Source: an endosymbiont of Galathealinum brachiosum
Lineage (GTDB): Bacteria; Pseudomonadota; Gammaproteobacteria; SZUA-229
Direction: 5' to 3'
Length of the DNA: 64,000 nucleotides
NCBI GenBank assembly: GCA_003349885.1
Contig: QFXC01000011.1
Span: forward strand, 449,977 to 513,976
Below the pieces are notes generated by a model. The model was not told where the DNA came from. It did no database searches and saw only the letters and a list, made by a program, of their open reading frames with translations. A program made the translations under genes and the position numbers. Of this stretch, positions 3,098 to 38,784 are shown piece after piece (positions within the stretch are counted from its first letter, which is position 1; every line of letters starts with the position of its first letter).

Positions 3098-4732
3098 ATG
3101 GAAAACCAACGCACCATTCTTTACCTCGCCTTCTTTTTTACTCTGTTTTTACTTTATCAGGAGTGGCAAAAAAGCTATGGGCCTCAACCTGTAGTAACAG
3201 ACATAGAAAATGCTGCTTCATCTGTTCCCGGTGCTGACGCTGATTTATCTTCTTTACCGCAAGCAGTTATTCCGACAGGAACAAAATCCATTAATGCGTC
3301 ACCTCTGGCATCAGAGGAAAATGTTTCTCGAAATGCTGTTCATGTGGTGACAGATGTGATGGATTTAATGATTGATACGCAGGGTGGCACAATTTATCAG
3401 TTAGATTTGCGTGATTATCAGTTAAGTGCAGAACAGATAGATAAACCATTCCGCTTATTTTCAACAAAAGAAAGTCTTTATCATACAGCTCAATCAGGCC
3501 TGGTTTCATCCGCTCACCCTGCGCCTAATCATAAAGATATTTACCAGGCAGAAAGAACTGAATATCGTCTGGAAGAAGGCACAGATGAACTGAAAGTAAC
3601 ATTGTACTGGCAAAAAGAAGGTGTAACAGTTAATAAAATTTTCACTTTCACTCGTGATAGTTATGTTATTGATGTTGAACATGTTGTGTCGGCACAAAAC
3701 TGGAATGGCTCGGAGTATCGTCAGTTAGTTCGATCATTACAGGAACGTGAGTCAACTATGATTCCTACTTATGTAGGTGGCGTTGTATTTAATGAAGAAA
3801 TTAAATATGAAAAAGTTGATTTTGATGATATCGAAGAGCAGAGCTTTAAAACAGATATGAAAGGTGGCTGGATAGCAATGATCCAGCATTATTTTATGTC
3901 TGCGTGGGTACCTGATCAGAAGCAGGAAAATTTTACGTATACCTCTCATCCAACGGGAAATCGATATATTCTGGGTATGCGCTCACCTGCAGTTAATGCC
4001 ACTGCACAAAGTCCGGCTGTATTTAATAGTCAGTTAGTTGTGGGTCCAAAGCTACAGGGCAAGCTGGAAGAAATTTCTCCAGGACTGGAACTAGTAGTTG
4101 ATTACGGCATATTAACCATTCTTGCAAAACCCCTATTCTGGTTATTAGAATTTTATCACTCCCAATTTAATAACTGGGGCTGGGCAATTATCTTTTTAAC
4201 CATAACGGTTAAAGCAGCTTTTTACTGGTTATCAGCAAAAGGTTATCGTTCTATGGCTCGCATGCGTAAAGTGGGCCCACGTATGCAGCAATTAAAAGAA
4301 CGTTATGGTGATGACCGCCAGCGCATGTCTGCAGAAATGATGAAAATGTATAAAGAAGAGAAAATAAACCCATTGGGTGGATGTTTCCCTATCCTGATAC
4401 AAATTCCCGTGTTTATTGCGCTTTACTGGGTATTACTAGAATCTGTTGAAATGCGTAATGCGCCATTTGCTCTATGGATTCAAAATTTATCAGAACAGGA
4501 TCCATATTTTATTCTGCCAATATTGATGGGTGCAACGATGTATATTCAGCAGAAACTGAACCCTGCACCGGTTGATCCCGTACAGCAGAAAGTATTCCAG
4601 TTTATGCCTCTGGTATTCACTATCTTCTTCCTGTTCTTCCCGGCGGGTCTGGTACTTTACTGGGTAGTGAATAATACACTTTCAATTATTCAGCAATGGA
4701 TTATTACCAGAAATATCGAATCTGAAAAGTAG
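3098..4732 (+). CDS. yidC: Membrane protein insertase YidC
   Basis: N-terminal TM, periplasmic domain, VDYG, NPLGGCFPILIQIPVFIALY, LYWVVNN. Confidence 0.99.
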   Translation: MENQRTILYLAFFFTLFLLYQEWQKSYGPQPVVTDIENAASSVPGADADLSSLPQAVIPTGTKSINASPLASEENVSRNAVHVVTDVMDLMIDTQGGTIYQLDLRDYQLSAEQIDKPFRLFSTKESLYHTAQSGLVSSAHPAPNHKDIYQAERTEYRLEEGTDELKVTLYWQKEGVTVNKIFTFTRDSYVIDVEHVVSAQNWNGSEYRQLVRSLQERESTMIPTYVGGVVFNEEIKYEKVDFDDIEEQSFKTDMKGGWIAMIQHYFMSAWVPDQKQENFTYTSHPTGNRYILGMRSPAVNATAQSPAVFNSQLVVGPKLQGKLEEISPGLELVVDYGILTILAKPLFWLLEFYHSQFNNWGWAIIFLTITVKAAFYWLSAKGYRSMARMRKVGPRMQQLKERYGDDRQRMSAEMMKMYKEEKINPLGGCFPILIQIPVFIALYWVLLESVEMRNAPFALWIQNLSEQDPYFILPILMGATMYIQQKLNPAPVDPVQQKVFQFMPLVFTIFFLFFPAGLVLYWVVNNTLSIIQQWIITRNIESEK

Positions 4733-4744
4733 TTCATCACTAAG

Positions 4745-4770
4745 GCACATATTCCCCGAGGGATATGTGT
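4745..4770 (+). other. Intercistronic hairpin between yidC and mnmE (no U-tract)
   Basis: GCACATAT-T-CCC / GGG-ATATGTGT stem. Confidence 0.45.
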
Positions 4771-4841
4771 CAGAGCAGGGTAATACTTTTCAGATTCAAA
4801 TCTTTATTTCAAAATCTTGTCATGGCAAGTAAACTCCTCAC

Positions 4842-6194
4842 ATGACGCATTCTAACAAAGATACAATTGCAGCTATTGCTACAGCTCCCGGCAGAGGTGG
4901 TGTGGGAATCGTTCGGGTATCTGGTCCGAAAAGTTTCGAAATAGCTAAAAAAATTCTGGGTAAAACGCCAAAAATACGCAAAGCGGAATATTTGCCGTTT
5001 AATGATAGTGATGATCAGGCTATCGACACAGGTATCGCGCTGCTTTTCCAAAATCCAAACTCATTCACCGGTGAAGATATATTAGAGCTACAGGCCCATG
5101 GTGGCCCAGTGGTGCTGGATATGATTCTTAAGCGTGTGCTTGAACTGGGTGCCAGACCCGCGCGAGCAGGTGAATTTACTGAGCAGGCATTTATAAATGA
5201 TAAAATGGATCTGGCTCAGGCAGAAGCTGTTGCCGATTTAATAGAAGCAGAATCAGCGGAGGCTGCTAAAGCTGCTGTTAAATCTTTGCAGGGTGAATTT
5301 TCTAAAACAATATATGATCTGGTAGAAAGCCTGATAGAACTTCGTTTATATGTCGAAGCATCATTAGATTTTCCAGAAGAAGAAATAGATTTTCTAAGTG
5401 ATGGAAAAGTAGAAGCTAAACTGGCTTTAATTGAAGCAGCTTTGTTAGCGGTTTTTAAATCGGCAAGGCAGGGCTGTTTGTTACGCGAAGGTATGACACT
5501 GGTTATAGCGGGTCGGCCTAATGCAGGTAAGTCGAGTTTATTAAATCAGTTAGCGGGTCGTGAATCAGCAATTGTTACTGATATTCCAGGCACAACACGG
5601 GATGTTTTGCGTGAACATATTCAAATTGATGGTTTACCCTTGCACGTAATAGACACGGCAGGATTACGTGAATCTGAAGATCCTATTGAACAGGAAGGTG
5701 TACGACGTGCCTGGAAAGAGATTGAACAGGCTGACAGAATTATATTATTAGTAGATGATACGCACCGAGATGATGATCACCTTGAAATAGAAGATAAACT
5801 ACCACGGCATATTGGAGTTACCCGCGTATTTAATAAAATTGATACTTCAGGTAGAAAGGCAGAATTAATCGAAATTGAATCTGAAACGGATATAGCCCTC
5901 AGCGCTAAAACCGGAGCAGGTATGGATATTTTAAAAAATCATCTGAAACAATGCATGGGGTATGAGCAGAGTAATGAAGGTCGTTTTATGGCAAGAAGAC
6001 GTCATATTGAAGCGCTGGAAAATGCAGATCAACATTTGCAAAGAGCAAGATATAATCTAATAGAGTTACAGGCGGGTGAATTATTAGCTGAAGAATTACG
6101 TATGGCGCAGGATTTTCTTAGTCAGATAACCGGTGAGTTTACTTCTGATGATTTACTAGGGAAGATTTTTTCAAGTTTCTGTATAGGAAAATAA
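4842..6194 (+). CDS. mnmE: tRNA modification GTPase MnmE (TrmE)
   Basis: [25 protein letters not shown] and C-terminal FCIGK. Confidence 0.99.
6177..6194 (+). repeat. attL core (last 18 bp of mnmE)
   Basis: TTCTGTATAGGAAAATAA; 14/18 identical to 11531-11548. Confidence 0.85.
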
Positions 6195-6290: not shown

Positions 6291-6305
6291 ATATCCAGTT
6301 AATAT

Positions 6306-6360
6306 TGTGCCCAATAGTGTGCCTATGATCATTTATTAATCAAAAGTCATGGGCACAAAT
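6306..6360. repeat. Integrase arm-type sites (left)
   Basis: GTGCCCAA at 6307 and GTGCCTAT at 6319 (12-bp period). ATGGGCACAAAT at 6349-6360 is the exact reverse complement of 11447-11458. Confidence 0.75.
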
Positions 6361-6380: not shown

Positions 6381-7586
6381 ATGGCATTAACAGAAACTAA
6401 ACTTAAAAATCTTAAACCTCGTGTAAAGTCTTATCAAATGTCAGATGGAAATGGTCTTTTCATAGAAGTTATGTCAGGTGGTAAGAAGGTATGGCGCTTA
6501 CGCTATCGTCTGAATGGTGTTCAGGAAAAAGTTACTCTTGGAGAATATCCTGCATATACACTGCTTGAAGCCAGACAGTGGCGGGAAGAATGTAGAGGCA
6601 TGGTAGCTAAAGGTATTTCTCCAATGAAGGAGAAGCAGAAGAGCAAGGGCTTCTTGAGTGGGCAGATTTCAGTTATTGAGTTTTGTGATGTTTGGGTGTC
6701 GGAAGTAGTAAACAAGACAACGAAAGAACCTAAAAATATTCGTAGAGTATTGGATAAAGATGTAATTCCAGCTATTGGACGAAAAAAACTGCCTGAAGTT
6801 AGCATTTCTGATGTTCAGTCTATTATTGATGCGATAAAGGCTCGTGGGTCTGATCAAGTAGCATTATTAACAAGGAATGTTATGAAGAGGTTATTTGCAT
6901 ATGCTATTTCACGTGAGAAATGTAATTTTAATCCTGCTGCAGCAATCGAGGGACGGTATATAGCCAAAACAAAAAATCGTGATGTTGTATTAACACCTAA
7001 AGAAATTGGTAAGTTACTAAAAGTTATTTATATGTCATCTATGAAAAGATCTAACAAGTTGGCTCTTCATTTGTTGATTTTATGCATGGTAAGGAAGTCA
7101 GAGCTTCTTGAAGCAACTTGGGATGAAATAGATTTTAAAAAGTGCGTTTGGTGTATTCCTGCAAGGCGAATGAAAAAGGATAAGCCTCATGTTGTGTACC
7201 TTTCAAATCAAGCATTAAATATATTAACTGAACTAAAATCATTGAGTAGTAACTCAAGCTATGTATTACCAAGTCGTACTACACTGAATCGTCCTATTTC
7301 AAAAACTACTTTGAACGCTGCTATAAAATCTTTAGACCTACAAATCAGTGCTTTTGTAATACATGATTTTAGGCGAACAGCTTCTACTCACTTACATGAA
7401 GCGGGTTTCAATTCAGATTGGATCGAAAAATCATTGGCACATGAGCAAGGTGGTGTGCGTGGTGTTTACAACCGAGCAGAATATTCAGAACAACGTCAAA
7501 AAATGCTTCAATGGTGGGCTAATTTTGTAGATGATCAAATTGTTGATAGAGACAATGTTATTCTGGGGCGTTTTTCAAATGTCTGA
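6381..7586 (+). CDS. P4-like tyrosine integrase with N-terminal arm-binding domain
   Basis: N-terminal DGNGLFIEV...KKVWRLRYR; catalytic R (MVRKSEL), HDFRR, LAH and Y (GVYNRAEY) all intact. Confidence 0.97.
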   Translation: MALTETKLKNLKPRVKSYQMSDGNGLFIEVMSGGKKVWRLRYRLNGVQEKVTLGEYPAYTLLEARQWREECRGMVAKGISPMKEKQKSKGFLSGQISVIEFCDVWVSEVVNKTTKEPKNIRRVLDKDVIPAIGRKKLPEVSISDVQSIIDAIKARGSDQVALLTRNVMKRLFAYAISREKCNFNPAAAIEGRYIAKTKNRDVVLTPKEIGKLLKVIYMSSMKRSNKLALHLLILCMVRKSELLEATWDEIDFKKCVWCIPARRMKKDKPHVVYLSNQALNILTELKSLSSNSSYVLPSRTTLNRPISKTTLNAAIKSLDLQISAFVIHDFRRTASTHLHEAGFNSDWIEKSLAHEQGGVRGVYNRAEYSEQRQKMLQWWANFVDDQIVDRDNVILGRFSNV

Positions 7587-8016
7587 TAAACAGGATTATT
7601 ATTCACTGCCTACAGGCTGTGATGATGAATCTACAGCAGGGGCTGCTTTATCTACAGATGTTCAATTAGCTTTTAGCTTTAAAGTTGGTCAACTTGGTAA
7701 GGATAAGGTAAATGAAATTATTGAGACAGAAGGTTTGCTGACTAAAAGGGATTTTGTACGACATGAGTACGGATCAATTAAAAACGCTCTTGAACACGTG
7801 CATAATTTAGCGGTAAAACAAGATAAACAACAATCAAGATTGCCAAAAACAGATTATAAACTTTCAGCTTCAGATAGGCAGAAAGCATTAAATAGGGTAA
7901 AGGTACTAAAAGATAAAAACCTGTCACGTTCTGATGAAGATGTATTCAATCAGGTAGGTACTGAGTATGGTGTTGTATCCAGAACAATCCGAAGGTTAGT
8001 AAACAGTATGAAATAA
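7579..8016 (+). CDS. Hypothetical protein (145 aa), possible C-terminal helix-turn-helix
   Basis: ATG 7579 overlaps the int stop. C-terminal DEDVFNQVGTEYGVVSRTIRRLV is HTH-like. Confidence 0.55.
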   Translation: MSDKQDYYSLPTGCDDESTAGAALSTDVQLAFSFKVGQLGKDKVNEIIETEGLLTKRDFVRHEYGSIKNALEHVHNLAVKQDKQQSRLPKTDYKLSASDRQKALNRVKVLKDKNLSRSDEDVFNQVGTEYGVVSRTIRRLVNSMK

Positions 8017-8039: not shown

Positions 8040-8092
8040 TCCTAAGACGTTATTAAATCTAACTGTGTTCAATGAGATCTATGAGGTCAAAC

Positions 8093-8302
8093 ATGGTTGA
8101 TTCAATATTACGTTTACCAATCGTAACTGCTCGTACAGGCCTATCACGAGCAACAATATATTTAAAAATTAAACAGAAAAGATTTCCTCAGCAAGTAGCT
8201 CTTGGTGGAAGAGCTGTAGGCTGGTGGGAAAGTGAAGTGAACTCTTGGTTAGATTCACTGGAACGTGTAAAGGAAGATCCATTGAGGGGGGTTAAGAAAT
8301 GA
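8093..8302 (+). CDS. alpA: AlpA-family regulator / recombination directionality factor
   Basis: ILRLPIVTARTGLSRATIY...FPQQVALGGRAVGWWESEV; GAGG RBS before ATG 8093. Confidence 0.92.
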   Translation: MVDSILRLPIVTARTGLSRATIYLKIKQKRFPQQVALGGRAVGWWESEVNSWLDSLERVKEDPLRGVKK

Positions 8303-8562
8303 TTCTCCCAATAGATGATAACTACAGAGTAGTTGGGAATGCGTACGGATGGTCGATCGAGAAAAAACGACCGTATAAAAAGACATCAAAGTGGGAACCG
8401 ATTAAATGGTTTGGTTCTTTAGAGCAGGCAATTAATGGATTAGGTAGATTATGGCTACGGACATCAGATGCAGAGACTTTGGAGTCTGCATTGTTAGAAG
8501 TTGAACGTATCTCAGCCAGACTAAGCCGAGCTTTAGATAAAGATTATTATCAAAGTCTTTGA
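8299..8562 (+). CDS. Phage-type hypothetical protein, DUF5405-like
   Basis: ATGA overlap with alpA. Pattern YRV..NAYGWSIEKK...WFGSLEQAI...SDAETLESAL resembles DUF5405 (by eye). Confidence 0.5.
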   Translation: MILPIDDNYRVVGNAYGWSIEKKRPYKKTSKWEPIKWFGSLEQAINGLGRLWLRTSDAETLESALLEVERISARLSRALDKDYYQSL

Positions 8563-9303: not shown

Positions 9304-9606
9304 TTAAGCTGCTACATTCTGATTGAGGCGATTAAGAATATTCAACGCTATTACTTTATAAATAGAATCTTTAGCATTAATGACTTTTATATAATCACTA
9401 ATGCCATCACGACCTATTTCATATGCAAGAACCCCAAATAGTTCATCGGCAAATGAGTCAGATATAGAGAAAACGTTGGAAAAATCAAACTCCACCCTGT
9501 TTCCACGGGTTATAATTTGATTTACAGCCTCCCTATAGTTTCTCGCTTTAGCTCGAGAAGCTAAGTCACTTTCTAACAGTACTATAATGTTTGTTTTCAT
9601 TCTCAT
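9304..9606 (-). CDS. STAS-like (DUF4325) protein, anti-anti-sigma fold
   Basis: VEFDFSNVFSISDSFADELFG motif; ATGA overlap with the upstream kinase gene. Confidence 0.85.
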   Translation of the reverse strand: MRMKTNIIVLLESDLASRAKARNYREAVNQIITRGNRVEFDFSNVFSISDSFADELFGVLAYEIGRDGISDYIKVINAKDSIYKVIALNILNRLNQNVAA

Positions 9607-10541
9607 CTCCTCAGAAGGCTCACAATGTCTGAAATTTCGGGGCTATCTTTAGTTTCTTCGGCCTTAGAAAGATTACCTATAGGAAATCTACACGAAATAG
9701 CTACACCTTGCCAAGGTTCGCTTATAATTTCATTTGAGATATTTCCAGTGCTATCTATAGTATATATACAATCACCGGAACAAATGCAAAGGTTTCCTGC
9801 ATACTTTCTGACCAGCTGAATCAGCTTATACAGACCTAATCCTTGATGATGATTATCAGAATGGAACGTAGGCACATTGTTCCCATATGGGTTTCCACCT
9901 GTTTGATCTGTTGGTACCTTTTGATCCCAATCATTCTCAGGGGCGTCTCTTAGCTTGGTCGAATGCCCTTTTTGAATACACCATTCTATAGCTCCTTGGT
10001 GATCAGAGACTTCTAACCCAATACTTGTAACTTCTCGTAGAAACCCAAGCCCACTGTCTACCAGAGCAAATTCGAGACTTCCATTAAATTTCTGTGCCAT
10101 AGAGAAGCCAGTATTGAGGCCATGTGACCAAACATTATCATGGAGTTCTCCAACAACATTACATAAGTCTGATATGCCCTGTCCCTCCTCATGTTCACTA
10201 CAGCTTCTTATGCAGCTATTAATGGTAGAAGTCGCTTGATCTGTAACCTCTTGGCAATCAAGCTGTACAAGTGTTGAATAATTCAGCCCTTCATTTATTC
10301 GTTCATATTCATATGAATCAACCCCTGAAAGGTGCTTATCAAAAGCAATTGCCTTGGAATAGCCTTCTTGCACTTGATTACCAAATTGAACATTTTCTGT
10401 GGTGTATTTTTGCTTTTTACCTAAGCAAGCAGCAATAACCCAAAATCCTGGACTACAAAATTCATCTGGTAAAAGGAGCATATTTATCTCCAGTACATTA
10501 ATGTCATTTATGTTCTTAAGTGTTTTTCGAAGACTATACAT
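9603..10541 (-). CDS. GHKL/HATPase_c protein of anti-sigma-kinase type
   Basis: N-box ELHDNVWSHG, G1 VDSGLGF, G2 HQGLGL, G3 QGVAI. No HisKA phospho-His region or TM segments. Confidence 0.8.
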   Translation of the reverse strand: MYSLRKTLKNINDINVLEINMLLLPDEFCSPGFWVIAACLGKKQKYTTENVQFGNQVQEGYSKAIAFDKHLSGVDSYEYERINEGLNYSTLVQLDCQEVTDQATSTINSCIRSCSEHEEGQGISDLCNVVGELHDNVWSHGLNTGFSMAQKFNGSLEFALVDSGLGFLREVTSIGLEVSDHQGAIEWCIQKGHSTKLRDAPENDWDQKVPTDQTGGNPYGNNVPTFHSDNHHQGLGLYKLIQLVRKYAGNLCICSGDCIYTIDSTGNISNEIISEPWQGVAISCRFPIGNLSKAEETKDSPEISDIVSLLRR

Positions 10542-10546
10542 CTATT

Positions 10547-10574
10547 GTCTATGTTAGTGAGTCTATGTTAGTGA
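10547..10574. repeat. Perfect 14-bp tandem duplication just upstream of the kinase start codon
   Basis: GTCTATGTTAGTGA x2. Confidence 0.9.
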
Positions 10575-10671
10575 GTTTTTGTTGTTGGTCATTATAGTGG
10601 GGGATCAAAATTTAGATACAAATATAGTAACTGAATAGAAATATCGATTGGAAATATATTCTGTTTTGTAC

Positions 10672-11446: not shown

Positions 11447-11470
11447 ATTTGTGCCCATTATAGTGCCCAT
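11447..11470. repeat. Integrase arm-type sites (right)
   Basis: GTGCCCAT at 11451 and 11463 (12-bp period, same as the left pair). Confidence 0.75.

Positions 11471-37389: not shown

Positions 37390-38784
<1,395 letters not shown>

Follow-up and report, generated by a model that had tools for sequence, protein, structure and literature searches.

A coupled kinase–STAS gene pair beside mnmE

In the 64,000-nucleotide stretch of DNA from an endosymbiont of Galathealinum brachiosum analysed here (the window), a gene for a GHKL kinase and a gene for a small STAS protein lie side by side on the minus strand and share a four-nucleotide stop/start overlap (Table 1). The initial annotation had reported both open reading frames and the ATGA overlap, and they are present as claimed; judged from the sequence, the overlap is a translational coupling of the two genes. 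A lipoprotein gene stands immediately upstream of the pair on the same strand, a 265-bp spacer lies 3' of the STAS gene, and the gene downstream is convergent, in the window as in most of the loci described below. Just ahead of the kinase start lies a perfect tandem repeat, possibly an operator or 5'-leader element, whose membership in the module is uncertain; it is not conserved in front of the homologue in the locus L054 (82% identity). The sequence around the pair matched no Rfam family, and neither a promoter nor a terminator could be convincingly identified there.

Table 1. Coordinates (window numbering) of the gene pair, its protein domains and the neighbouring island features.
Feature	Position	Strand	Evidence
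P4-type tyrosine integrase, island left end	6381..7586	plus	Pfam Arm-DNA-bind_3, Phage_int_M, Phage_integrase
AlpA-family HTH regulator/excisionase of the island	8072..8302	plus	Pfam PF05930, E=3.4e-19
STAS partner gene, DUF4325, 100 aa, ending -VAA	9304..9606	minus	Pfam PF14213, E=4.3e-13
Candidate phospho-acceptor loop, codons S49-D50-S51	9454..9462	minus	N-terminus of STAS helix alpha2
ATGA stop/start overlap AGATGAGAATG	9603..9606	minus	Read off the sequence; kinase TGA over STAS ATG
GHKL kinase gene, 312 aa	9603..10541	minus	ORF; phrog_3364 match E=1e-41; 440 homologues
GHKL ATP-binding/kinase domain, residues ~121-290	9672..10181	minus	Invariant motifs; SpoIIAB fold match; VapK alignment
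Family-specific ATP-lid insert, residues 197-233	9843..9953	minus	34-39 residues in 120/120 homologues
Kinase N-terminal domain, residues 1-120	10182..10541	minus	beta-alpha-beta-alpha-beta-alpha (DSSP on AF2 model, pLDDT 94-98)
Perfect 14-bp tandem repeat (GTCTATGTTAGTGA x2)	10547..10574		6 nt upstream of kinase start codon

The surrounding island adjoins mnmE, the stop codon of which marks the point where homology with the nearest relative ends; the P4-type integrase gene, directly after mnmE, and the AlpA-family gene lie beyond that point. No second copy of the 3' end of mnmE that could serve as attR was found, either with an 18-mer allowing up to 3 mismatches or with shorter seeds afterwards, and a repeated ATTTGTGCCCAT motif near both presumed island ends is at chance level. 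The kinase–STAS pair is plausibly the main cargo of this island. The island had also been described as free of any sigma factor, phosphatase, PIN toxin or HTH partner. The first three absences hold among the scanned island ORFs and, for the PIN toxin, in a tblastn search with VapC as well. The AlpA-type protein encoded at 8072-8302 does have an HTH, but as a regulator or excisionase it belongs to the island itself.

Fold and conserved residues of the two proteins

The kinase motifs quoted in the initial annotation are all present and, together with the long lid insert, are kept in 120 homologues. The N-box reads E132-LHDNVWSHG-141 (positions 10119-10148), the G1 box D162-S-G-L-G166 and the G2 box G234-L-G-L237, with 37 residues separating GHSTK196 from G234. 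Because N136, D162, G164, G166, G234, G236 and L237 are invariant across the 120 homologues, these motifs are more than a chance resemblance. Within the lid insert, W205, Q207, P210, D212 and H232 are invariant or near-invariant in the same set; the AF2 model has a pLDDT of 71-84 over the insert and of 91.5 over the whole kinase.

The Pfam match to the GHKL domain is weak and misses the cut-off (HATPase_c_5, E=0.018), the PHROGs family that holds the kinase (phrog_3364) is unnamed and gives no function, and NCBIfam offers no function for either protein. Sequence and profile searches of PDB chains with both proteins returned nothing meaningful, and neither SpoIIAB nor RsbW was matched by the kinase in the PDB sequence search. 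At the level of the fold, SpoIIAB (1tid_C) is the top Foldseek match of the kinase AF2 model (TMt 0.72), in keeping with the SpoIIAB/RsbW-like character first ascribed to it, and a BFVD fold search gave generic GHKL matches only. The fold comparison, together with the profile comparison with VapK given below, settles the GHKL assignment.

The N-terminal domain ahead of it is, on the AF2 model, possibly a truncated STAS-like sensor domain; its profile had no match in the PDB. Position 28 is F, Y, H or W in 119 of the 120 sequences and P31 is kept in 119 of 120, P31-G32 following the aromatic/His position in the window kinase. Pfam matched no HTH anywhere in the 312 residues.

The partner protein consists of a STAS fold only and stops at residue 100, directly past helix alpha3, with no HTH or wHTH in Pfam or in the AF2 model (pLDDT 94.5, built with database homologues). 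Foldseek matched this model to RsbS (6jhk) and SpoIIAA (1tid_B) at a TM of ~0.6. Helix alpha2 starts at residue 50 with S49 as its N-cap, both S49 and S51 are invariant in 71 STAS homologues, and the same holds for the whole alpha2 face (S49-x-S51-x-A-D-E-L-F-G-V) and for the surface residues R18, R25 and R93. With the conserved Asp in strand beta3 taken as zero, S49 lies at +8 and S51 at +10, compared with +9 for the known acceptors S58 of SpoIIAA and S48 of VapS and +10 for S54 of CapS. The suggestion that S49/S51 correspond to the phospho-Ser loop of anti-anti-sigma factors is borne out: the fold is that of a STAS domain, and its conserved Ser loop sits at the matching place. The family varies at its C-terminus: about 58% of the STAS proteins have an extra conserved basic helix (PDIALLAARKALKQR), which is absent from the window protein, and short STAS proteins end in Ala in 50 of 53 cases, 24 of these in Ala-Ala.

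Spread, genomic setting and characterised relatives

We collected 440 kinase homologues, all of about 315-330 amino acids. The STAS gene adjoins the kinase gene, following it, in 50 of 51 genomic and 54 of 55 viral loci, a two-gene state found in 104 of 106 loci, the two exceptions running into a contig edge. The initial annotation had weighed the case that homologous pairs always need a third gene, but no PIN gene or other recurrent third gene appears across the 106 loci. A tblastn search with VapC, in which the positive control worked, found none in the window (best E=8), in the 51 genome loci or in the 55 viral loci, and no PIN relic lies in the spacer that follows the STAS gene. Comparison of the window with L054 gives a dN/dS of 0.13 for the kinase and 0.11 for the STAS gene; both genes are under purifying selection. 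The module ranges over Gamma- and Betaproteobacteria and reaches a Leptospira plasmid, and every copy sits on a mobile element. Upstream of the pair on the Leptospira plasmid there is an additional 307-aa gene, to which Pfam gives no function. The kinase ORF is disrupted with the STAS gene intact in 7 of 50 loci and the reverse occurs in none, a 7:0 ratio that is not significant when gene length is considered (p ~0.13) and that includes several cases from MAGs. We found no description of this two-gene family in the literature. The pair is a conserved family in effector-less form, neither orphan nor remnant, and its earlier designation as an orphan is misleading, since the family is widespread and selected.

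Of 40 distinct viral loci, 27 have the pair in the interval from gpA to the portal gene gpQ of P2-like prophages, those of E. coli included, and an annotated E. coli prophage has the same gpA–portal placement. The P2-hotspot version of E. coli strain EM06-18-14 comprises WP_016242317.1 and WP_016242316.1. The gpA–gpQ interval is the P2 old/tin anti-phage hotspot (Rousset et al. 2022, PMC9122126); the main text of that paper does not name the kinase–STAS pair. The exclusion genes of the hotspot (old, tin and others) occupy the same genomic slot as the pair, but their proteins are unrelated to it. The gpA end lies less than 1 kb upstream of the pair in at least seven P2-like loci, in which the pair is therefore the only sizeable cargo, and DinI is found near the pair in P2-like loci. 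The window copy sits in the small mnmE-adjacent island and not in the P2 hotspot.

The closest relative (82% identity) comes after HsdR and a DinG-like helicase, and other neighbours across the loci comprise RM methyltransferases, PD-Lambda-1, PD-T4-6, SoFic and CI-like repressors. A CI-like HTH-S24 repressor lies 17-71 bp upstream on the same strand in four genome and five viral loci; in phage KIRK, a CI repressor is followed by a 293-aa protein and then by a DUF4325 protein (PMC7924643). Profiles of known defence systems did not place the pair: in PADLOC-DB v2, where there is no model of the kinase, the kinase had no match at E<=1, and the STAS protein matched weakly a DUF4325-like stretch of the DrmA model (E=1.2e-5).

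The initial annotation had named CapK/CapS and a version with a PIN nuclease as related modules; both are real published systems, and the kinase is detectably homologous to VapK. VapKSC comprises the kinase VapK, the STAS antitoxin VapS and the PIN toxin VapC, while CapK is an HTH-STAS-GHKL kinase and CapS a STAS-wHTH repressor, which regulate adjacent operons upon DNA damage (Chambers et al., EMBO J 2026, PMC13373217). In both systems the output sits with the STAS protein: VapS holds VapC, its C-terminal helix reaching the toxin active site and blocking it, and CapS holds DNA (PMC13373217). VapKSC responds to DNA damage/ssDNA and protects its host from phage. VapK's N-terminal STAS domain is predicted to bind ssDNA, and its residue F54 is needed for the response (PMC13373217).

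On sequence comparison, the closest characterised relative of the kinase–STAS pair is VapK/VapS of VapKSC. The 120-sequence kinase profile aligned with Escherichia VapK in hhalign (probability 95%, E=3.3e-8, residues 126-283 against 150-285), and VapK shares the motif W-x-C-x-Q-x-G-x-[ST]-T with the family. The layout is alike as well: a kinase of about 300 amino acids that has no HTH and joins an N-terminal alpha/beta domain to a GHKL domain, a tightly coupled STAS gene after it whose product of about 100-116 amino acids carries a conserved Ser where helix alpha2 begins, and a location on mobile elements and near defence genes. In contrast, the VapC/PIN gene is absent from every locus of the family, and VapK has neither the lid insert (hhalign leaves a gap there) nor the extra C-terminal helix of the window kinase family. 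The similarity between VapS and the STAS protein is marginal (hhalign probability 54%, E=1.3e-4); the inhibitory C-terminal helix of VapS is absent from the window STAS protein and differs from the basic helix seen in ~58% of the family. Taken alone, the kinase N-terminal domain showed no significant similarity to VapK in a single-sequence comparison (E=0.21), and a forced global hhalign set F28-x-x-P31 of the kinase on F54-x-x-P57 of VapK. A scan for VapK relatives returned one locus, in Rahnella.

CapK/CapS resembles the pair as a GHKL kinase with a STAS substrate, and S54-F-P-R-E of CapS is mirrored by S51-F-A-D-E in the window. The similarity of CapK to the kinase profile is weak (hhalign E=4.8e-4, probability 32%); it reaches the pre-GHKL linker and begins past the HTH of CapK and the greater part of its STAS domain. 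CapS is not similar to the STAS profile (hhalign E=0.82). Unlike CapK, the window kinase has no N-terminal HTH and no obvious counterpart of the ssDNA-contacting Lys residues; the window STAS protein has no wHTH and, because the next gene is convergent, the pair controls no downstream immune operon. SpoIIAB/SpoIIAA and RsbW/RsbV match both proteins best in structure and have their Ser at the alpha2 N-terminus, but the window family comes without a cognate sigma factor or PP2C phosphatase, and its kinase carries an additional 120-residue N-terminal domain and the lid insert.

A proposed stand-alone phospho-switch and its alternatives

We read the pair as a stand-alone defence or abortive-infection phospho-switch, with a probability of about 0.5. 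A stand-alone defence or toxin switch had been proposed from the start, and this proposal has gained ground: the effector-less form is the conserved state of the whole family, and the position in the P2 old/tin hotspot favours it. The components of this reading are of unequal strength. By analogy with the known systems, the two proteins probably form a kinase–substrate pair; an anti-phage or stress defence role, suggested by genomic location and by homology to CapK and VapK, seems on balance probable; and the view that the kinase itself is the effector is tentative and less likely than not, with two features missing from VapK, the lid insert and the extra C-terminal helix, and the Ala-ended STAS proteins counted toward it.

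The pair would then be a self-contained kinase–substrate switch that shares its lineage with VapK/VapS and CapK/CapS and travels as accessory cargo on prophages and integrative islands, and it would protect the lysogen or island host from other phages through abortive infection or exclusion. At rest, the kinase would be occupied and restrained by the unphosphorylated STAS protein, which may be short-lived, given the Ala or Ala-Ala ends of its short forms. An infection cue, which by analogy with CapK and VapK may be ssDNA, would turn the kinase on, and the active kinase would phosphorylate the bound 100-aa STAS protein on its invariant Ser loop (S49 or S51) and release it. The freed kinase could then act on host or phage proteins via its lid insert and C-terminal helix. 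A possible but doubtful form of this scheme is a minimal two-protein immune switch in which the GHKL Ser kinase would be both sensor and executioner, and the STAS protein a stoichiometric, possibly proteolytically unstable pseudosubstrate buffer that sets the threshold. With the STAS pool phosphorylated in response to the cue, the kinase would attack host or phage proteins through its lid insert and halt the infection. If true, partner switching would here operate with no sigma factor, phosphatase or nuclease and with no output through DNA binding.

The characterised relatives, in which the STAS protein holds the output, favour a different arrangement with a VapS-like logic, whereby the unphosphorylated STAS protein inhibits or activates an unlinked host or phage protein and phosphorylation by the sensor kinase frees this target. 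Such is the mode of both VapS–VapC and CapS–DNA (PMC13373217); R18, R25 and R93 with the alpha2 face could serve a second partner, and the basic C-terminal helix of the longer STAS proteins recalls the VapC-blocking helix of VapS. However, the window STAS protein has no C-terminal extension, none of the 106 loci has a candidate partner linked to the pair, and, as the module moves across Gamma- and Betaproteobacteria and onto a Leptospira plasmid, any unlinked target would have to be nearly universal, so that we consider this arrangement rather unlikely. The structural matches to SpoIIAB and to SpoIIAA/RsbS/RsbV would suit a classical partner switch capturing a host sigma factor, with the kinase as anti-sigma factor and the STAS protein as its antagonist. 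Beyond these matches nothing points to the hijack of a host sigma factor raised in the initial annotation: the window has neither a sigma factor nor a PP2C phosphatase linked to the pair and neither recurs in the 106 loci, the proteobacterial hosts have very different sigma repertoires, and in sequence VapK is a closer match to the kinase than any anti-sigma factor, which leaves sigma capture very improbable. The homology of the kinase to VapK and the absence of VapC could also suggest a degenerate, non-functional remnant of a three-gene VapKSC operon minus its PIN nuclease. This was rejected and has a negligible chance of being right, as neither a PIN relic (the 265-bp spacer included) nor a VapC homologue was found in the window or the 106 loci, two genes are the rule in 104 of the 106, dN/dS is ~0.12 with invariant catalytic and acceptor residues, and the lid insert is the family's own synapomorphy.

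Two further explanations, both improbable in our view, tie the pair to the mobile element itself. An addiction (toxin–antitoxin) module stabilising the element, with the kinase as toxin and a labile STAS protein as antitoxin, would agree with two small, translationally coupled genes always on mobile elements, with the Ala or Ala-Ala STAS C-termini, which suggest a degradation tag, and with the disruption of the kinase beside an intact STAS gene in 7 of 50 loci and never the reverse. That imbalance, however, is not significant given gene length (p ~0.13) and draws on several MAGs, simple sequestration needs no conserved phospho-acceptor Ser, and the P2 hotspot holds mostly defence systems, toxin–antitoxin and abortive-infection functions overlapping anyway. 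The other explanation is a regulator of the element's own life cycle, in which a DNA-damage-sensing kinase would modulate induction or excision through the STAS protein, CapKS-like without the DNA-binding domain. CapK and CapS do regulate adjacent operons in the DNA-damage response, and the closely spaced CI-like HTH-S24 repressors (four genome and five viral loci), the gene order of phage KIRK and the DinI genes in P2-like loci all agree with such a role. Against it, HTH and wHTH are both missing from the STAS protein, most loci have a convergent gene next, RecA is already sensed by S24 repressors, and exclusion genes, lambda rexAB for example, are typically co-transcribed with cI too.

Kinase–STAS pairs were tied to bacterial immunity only in 2026 (PMC13373217). 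The stand-alone family described here has the switch without a visible output, yet it is conserved and repeatedly found in the P2 old/tin hotspot. If it proves phage-protective, the pair would be a defence system missed by current tools such as PADLOC and would pose the mechanistic question of what a GHKL kinase/STAS switch with nothing attached to it targets. Its E. coli homologues make the family directly testable in standard laboratory strains.

A conserved two-gene kinase-STAS family

We examined the open reading frames, the sequence and Pfam matches of the pair, and all the elements read in the initial annotation were there: the kinase motifs, the ATGA coupling (kinase TGA stop/STAS ATG) and the DUF4325 STAS partner. 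The 100-aa protein is a clear DUF4325/STAS-like match in Pfam (E=4.3e-13); the GHKL domain of the kinase lies below the Pfam threshold (HATPase_c_5, E=0.018), and 37 residues separate GHSTK196 from G234. The database entry for the kinase has 292 aa and starts at M21, with a GGAG 9 nt upstream of M21 (window 10482-10541). Since residues 1-20 are conserved among homologues (L4 in 117/120) and the structural model is confident in that stretch, the 312-aa form is more likely to be correct.

Features of the pair and of the surrounding island
Feature	Position	Strand	Source
Kinase ORF, 312 aa	9603..10541	-	ORF scan
STAS ORF, 100 aa	9304..9606	-	ORF scan
Kinase N-box	E132-LHDNVWSHG-141		312-aa protein
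Kinase G1 box	D162-S-G-L-G166		312-aa protein
Kinase G2 box	G234-L-G-L237		312-aa protein
P4-type integrase	6381-7586		island ORF
AlpA regulator	8072-8302		island ORF
161-aa ORF	7531-8016		island ORF
87-aa ORF	8299-8562		island ORF
14-bp tandem repeat	10547-10574
TATAAT	~10590-10595	-
TTGTGCCCA / ATTTGTGCCCAT copies	6305-6322, 6349-6360, 11447-11466
Low-GC segment	11500-13950

The pair had been called an orphan; we found instead a conserved two-gene family with 440 kinase homologues (E<=1e-5, 90%-identity clusters), each of ~315-330 aa and each annotated as hypothetical, and with 177 clusters matching the kinase at E<=1e-30 among 50%-identity representatives. N136, W138, H140, D162, G164, G166, K196, Q207, D212, H232, G234, G236, L237 and W277 are invariant in a 120-sequence alignment, all members of which carry a lid insert of 34-39 residues. 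Downstream of the kinase lies a STAS homologue in 50 of 51 loci from species-representative genomes of Gamma- and Betaproteobacteria, the exception ending at a contig edge, and in 54 of 55 viral contigs (IMG/VR). Neighbour clustering of these 51 genome and 55 viral loci revealed no recurrent third gene, and tblastn with the VapC PIN toxin gave no match in them or in the window; the positive control worked. Between the window and the 82%-identical homologue in locus L054, dN/dS was 0.13 (kinase) and 0.11 (STAS gene). The conserved two-gene state, the low dN/dS and the lack of a recurrent third gene or VapC contradict the hypothesis of a degenerate remnant that has lost a required third gene.

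Between a perfect TATAAT and the kinase gene, the 14-bp sequence GTCTATGTTAGTGA occurs twice as a perfect direct tandem repeat, 6 nt before the ATG; this repeat might serve as an operator or leader element. No such repeat precedes the L054 homologue, where homology with the window begins only ~5 bp before the kinase ATG. Plasmid p1 of the spirochaete Leptospira mayottensis (NZ_CP024873.1) carries a distantly related copy (32% identity); an additional 307-aa gene precedes the pair by 6 bp on the same strand, and IS elements and a BrnA antitoxin gene are close by. In Ralstonia phage RSA1 (NC_009382.1), the STAS partner of ORF51 is present at 38212-38457 (tblastn E=8e-11), with no annotated feature beneath the match.

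Relation to VapKSC and CapK/CapS

The CapK/CapS and VapKSC systems that the initial annotation pointed to exist as published (Chambers et al., EMBO J 2026, PMC13373217). ssDNA activates CapK (HTH-STAS-GHKL), which phosphorylates the repressor CapS (STAS-wHTH), and in the authors' model VapK (STAS-GHKL) phosphorylates VapS, releasing the PIN toxin VapC (PMC13373217). Experiments demonstrated the VapS-VapC complex, antitoxin activity and phage protection; VapS phosphorylation by VapK and ssDNA activation are based on AlphaFold 3 models and protection-losing mutants (PMC13373217). Using query sequences from the supplementary files of PMC13373217, the kinase profile matched VapK across the GHKL domain (probability 95%, E=3.3e-8) and CapK with a probability of 32% (E=4.8e-4), and the STAS profile matched VapS marginally (54%, E=1.3e-4) and did not match CapS (E=0.82). 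The kinase and VapK have the motif W-x-C-x-Q-x-G-x-[ST]-T in common, but VapK has a gap of ~30 residues opposite the lid insert. VapC, the third component defining VapKSC, is absent from the pair loci, and the DNA-binding domains of CapK/CapS are absent from the kinase and the STAS protein; therefore, the pair belongs to neither system. The published VapKSC search retained solely loci with vapK, vapS and vapC (PMC13373217). We found no description of a two-gene kinase-STAS family in the literature, and a search of defence-system HMM profiles with PADLOC did not detect the kinase.

The AF2 model of the kinase is confident (pLDDT 91.5), and its top PDB match is the anti-sigma-factor kinase SpoIIAB (1tid_C, TM 0.72 on target), ahead of Hsp90 and GyrB ATPases. 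The STAS protein model (pLDDT 94.5) has STAS topology, with helix alpha2 from residue 50 and RsbS, SpoIIAA and RsbV as top structural matches. S49 and S51 are both invariant in the family alignment, and by sequence either may be the phospho-acceptor: relative to a conserved Asp in the strand before them, they lie at +8 and +10. SpoIIAA S58 and VapS S48 lie at +9, and CapS S54 lies at +10 in an S-F-x-x-E context like that of S51. The 120-residue N-terminal domain of the kinase is modelled as beta-alpha-beta-alpha-beta-alpha, with an aromatic residue or His at position 28 and P31 each in 119/120 members. A forced global alignment places F28-x-x-P31 onto F54-x-x-P57 of VapK, whose response requires F54 (PMC13373217). 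Because this domain alone has no significant similarity to VapK (E=0.21) or in a PDB profile search, its possible role as a STAS-like ssDNA sensor is a lead, not a finding.

Genomic setting of the pair

Of 40 non-redundant viral loci, 27 have the pair in a P2-like prophage slot: the replication gene gpA (PF05840) lies 0.7-3.8 kb upstream of it, and the portal gene gpQ (PF04860), which is convergent, lies ~45 bp away, with terminase gpP, scaffold gpO and capsid gpN beyond. Rousset et al. 2022 (PMC9122126) defined this gpA-gpQ interval as a hotspot that harbours many anti-phage systems, among them old and tin in P2. In at least 7 loci gpA ends <1 kb upstream, leaving the pair as sole sizeable occupant. 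Among 5426 complete E. coli genomes, 25 carry the pair, and an annotated E. coli chromosome has this gene order too: replication endonuclease, DinI, hypothetical protein (326 aa), STAS-like protein, portal. In 15/40 viral loci, gpA and the pair are separated by a DinI-like gene, also seen at 4720-4953 of locus L191 (E. coli EM06-18-14), so that a RecA/DNA-damage modulator stands beside a putative DNA-damage-sensing kinase. In phages RSA1 and vB_SBP7 the pair sits just past int/attP, at the genome end, and nine loci have it immediately after a CI-like HTH-S24 repressor. Its nearest relative is preceded by HsdR and a DinG-like helicase, and in other chromosomal settings integrases, transposases, RM methyltransferases, PD-Lambda-1, PD-T4-6 and SoFic are among the neighbours.

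In the window, the pair lies in a small element that begins directly past the mnmE stop codon, the point at which similarity to the nearest relative stops. Its description as an island whose main cargo is the pair is thus plausible but not delimited, because attR was searched for and not found, and a DUF4136-like lipoprotein gene lies 130 bp upstream of the pair on the same strand. As the initial annotation stated, no sigma factor, phosphatase or PIN protein is found among the island ORFs (Pfam, other family profiles, PHROGs). Besides the integrase and AlpA, the island has an 87-aa ORF with a match to phrog_154 ('replication initiation protein', E=3.5e-10) and two ORFs without database matches; a SocA/Panacea antitoxin-domain match of the 161-aa ORF is sub-threshold (E=0.065). 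With int and alpA and no primase, the element resembles a minimal satellite-like island. Copies of TTGTGCCCA / ATTTGTGCCCAT lie shortly before the integrase gene and past the lipoprotein gene and include a perfect 12-bp inverted pair 5086 nt apart; they could be integrase-binding or att-related sites, with island ends at ~6195 and ~11470, a match at chance level. The low-GC segment (27-28% vs ~37-40% in the surroundings) codes for a protein of 140 aa that looks secreted and for an AsmA-like protein of 650 aa (NF008091, E=4e-12), and may be a separate horizontally acquired segment adjoining the island.

Mode of action and alternatives

These data firmly support a predicted cognate pair of GHKL kinase and STAS substrate, working without a linked effector. 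From its genomic location, we infer that the pair defends the host against phages; by analogy, the trigger of the kinase might be ssDNA. We favour the kinase itself as the output, since its family has acquired a C-terminal helix and a conserved lid insert, both absent in VapK, and VapC is missing. Short-form STAS proteins end in Ala in 50/53 and in Ala-Ala in 24/53 (family alignments A3/A4), the window protein in -VAA (9304-9312); such ends resemble an ssrA-like degradation signal and might be the sign of an unstable inhibitor. In 7/50 genomic loci (L042, L045, L046, L048, L049, L050 and L051, several of them MAGs) an intact STAS gene accompanies a split or truncated kinase ORF, and the reverse occurs in none, an excess that would fit a toxic kinase although the difference is not significant.

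The main rival is that the STAS protein holds an unlinked conserved target, following the logic of VapS and CapS, which fits the conserved basic C-terminal helix (PDIALLAARKALKQR) of long-form STAS proteins (~58% of all). An addiction-only module, a life-cycle regulator and the sigma-factor hijack raised in the initial annotation are weaker explanations. The pair is a good, directly testable defence candidate.
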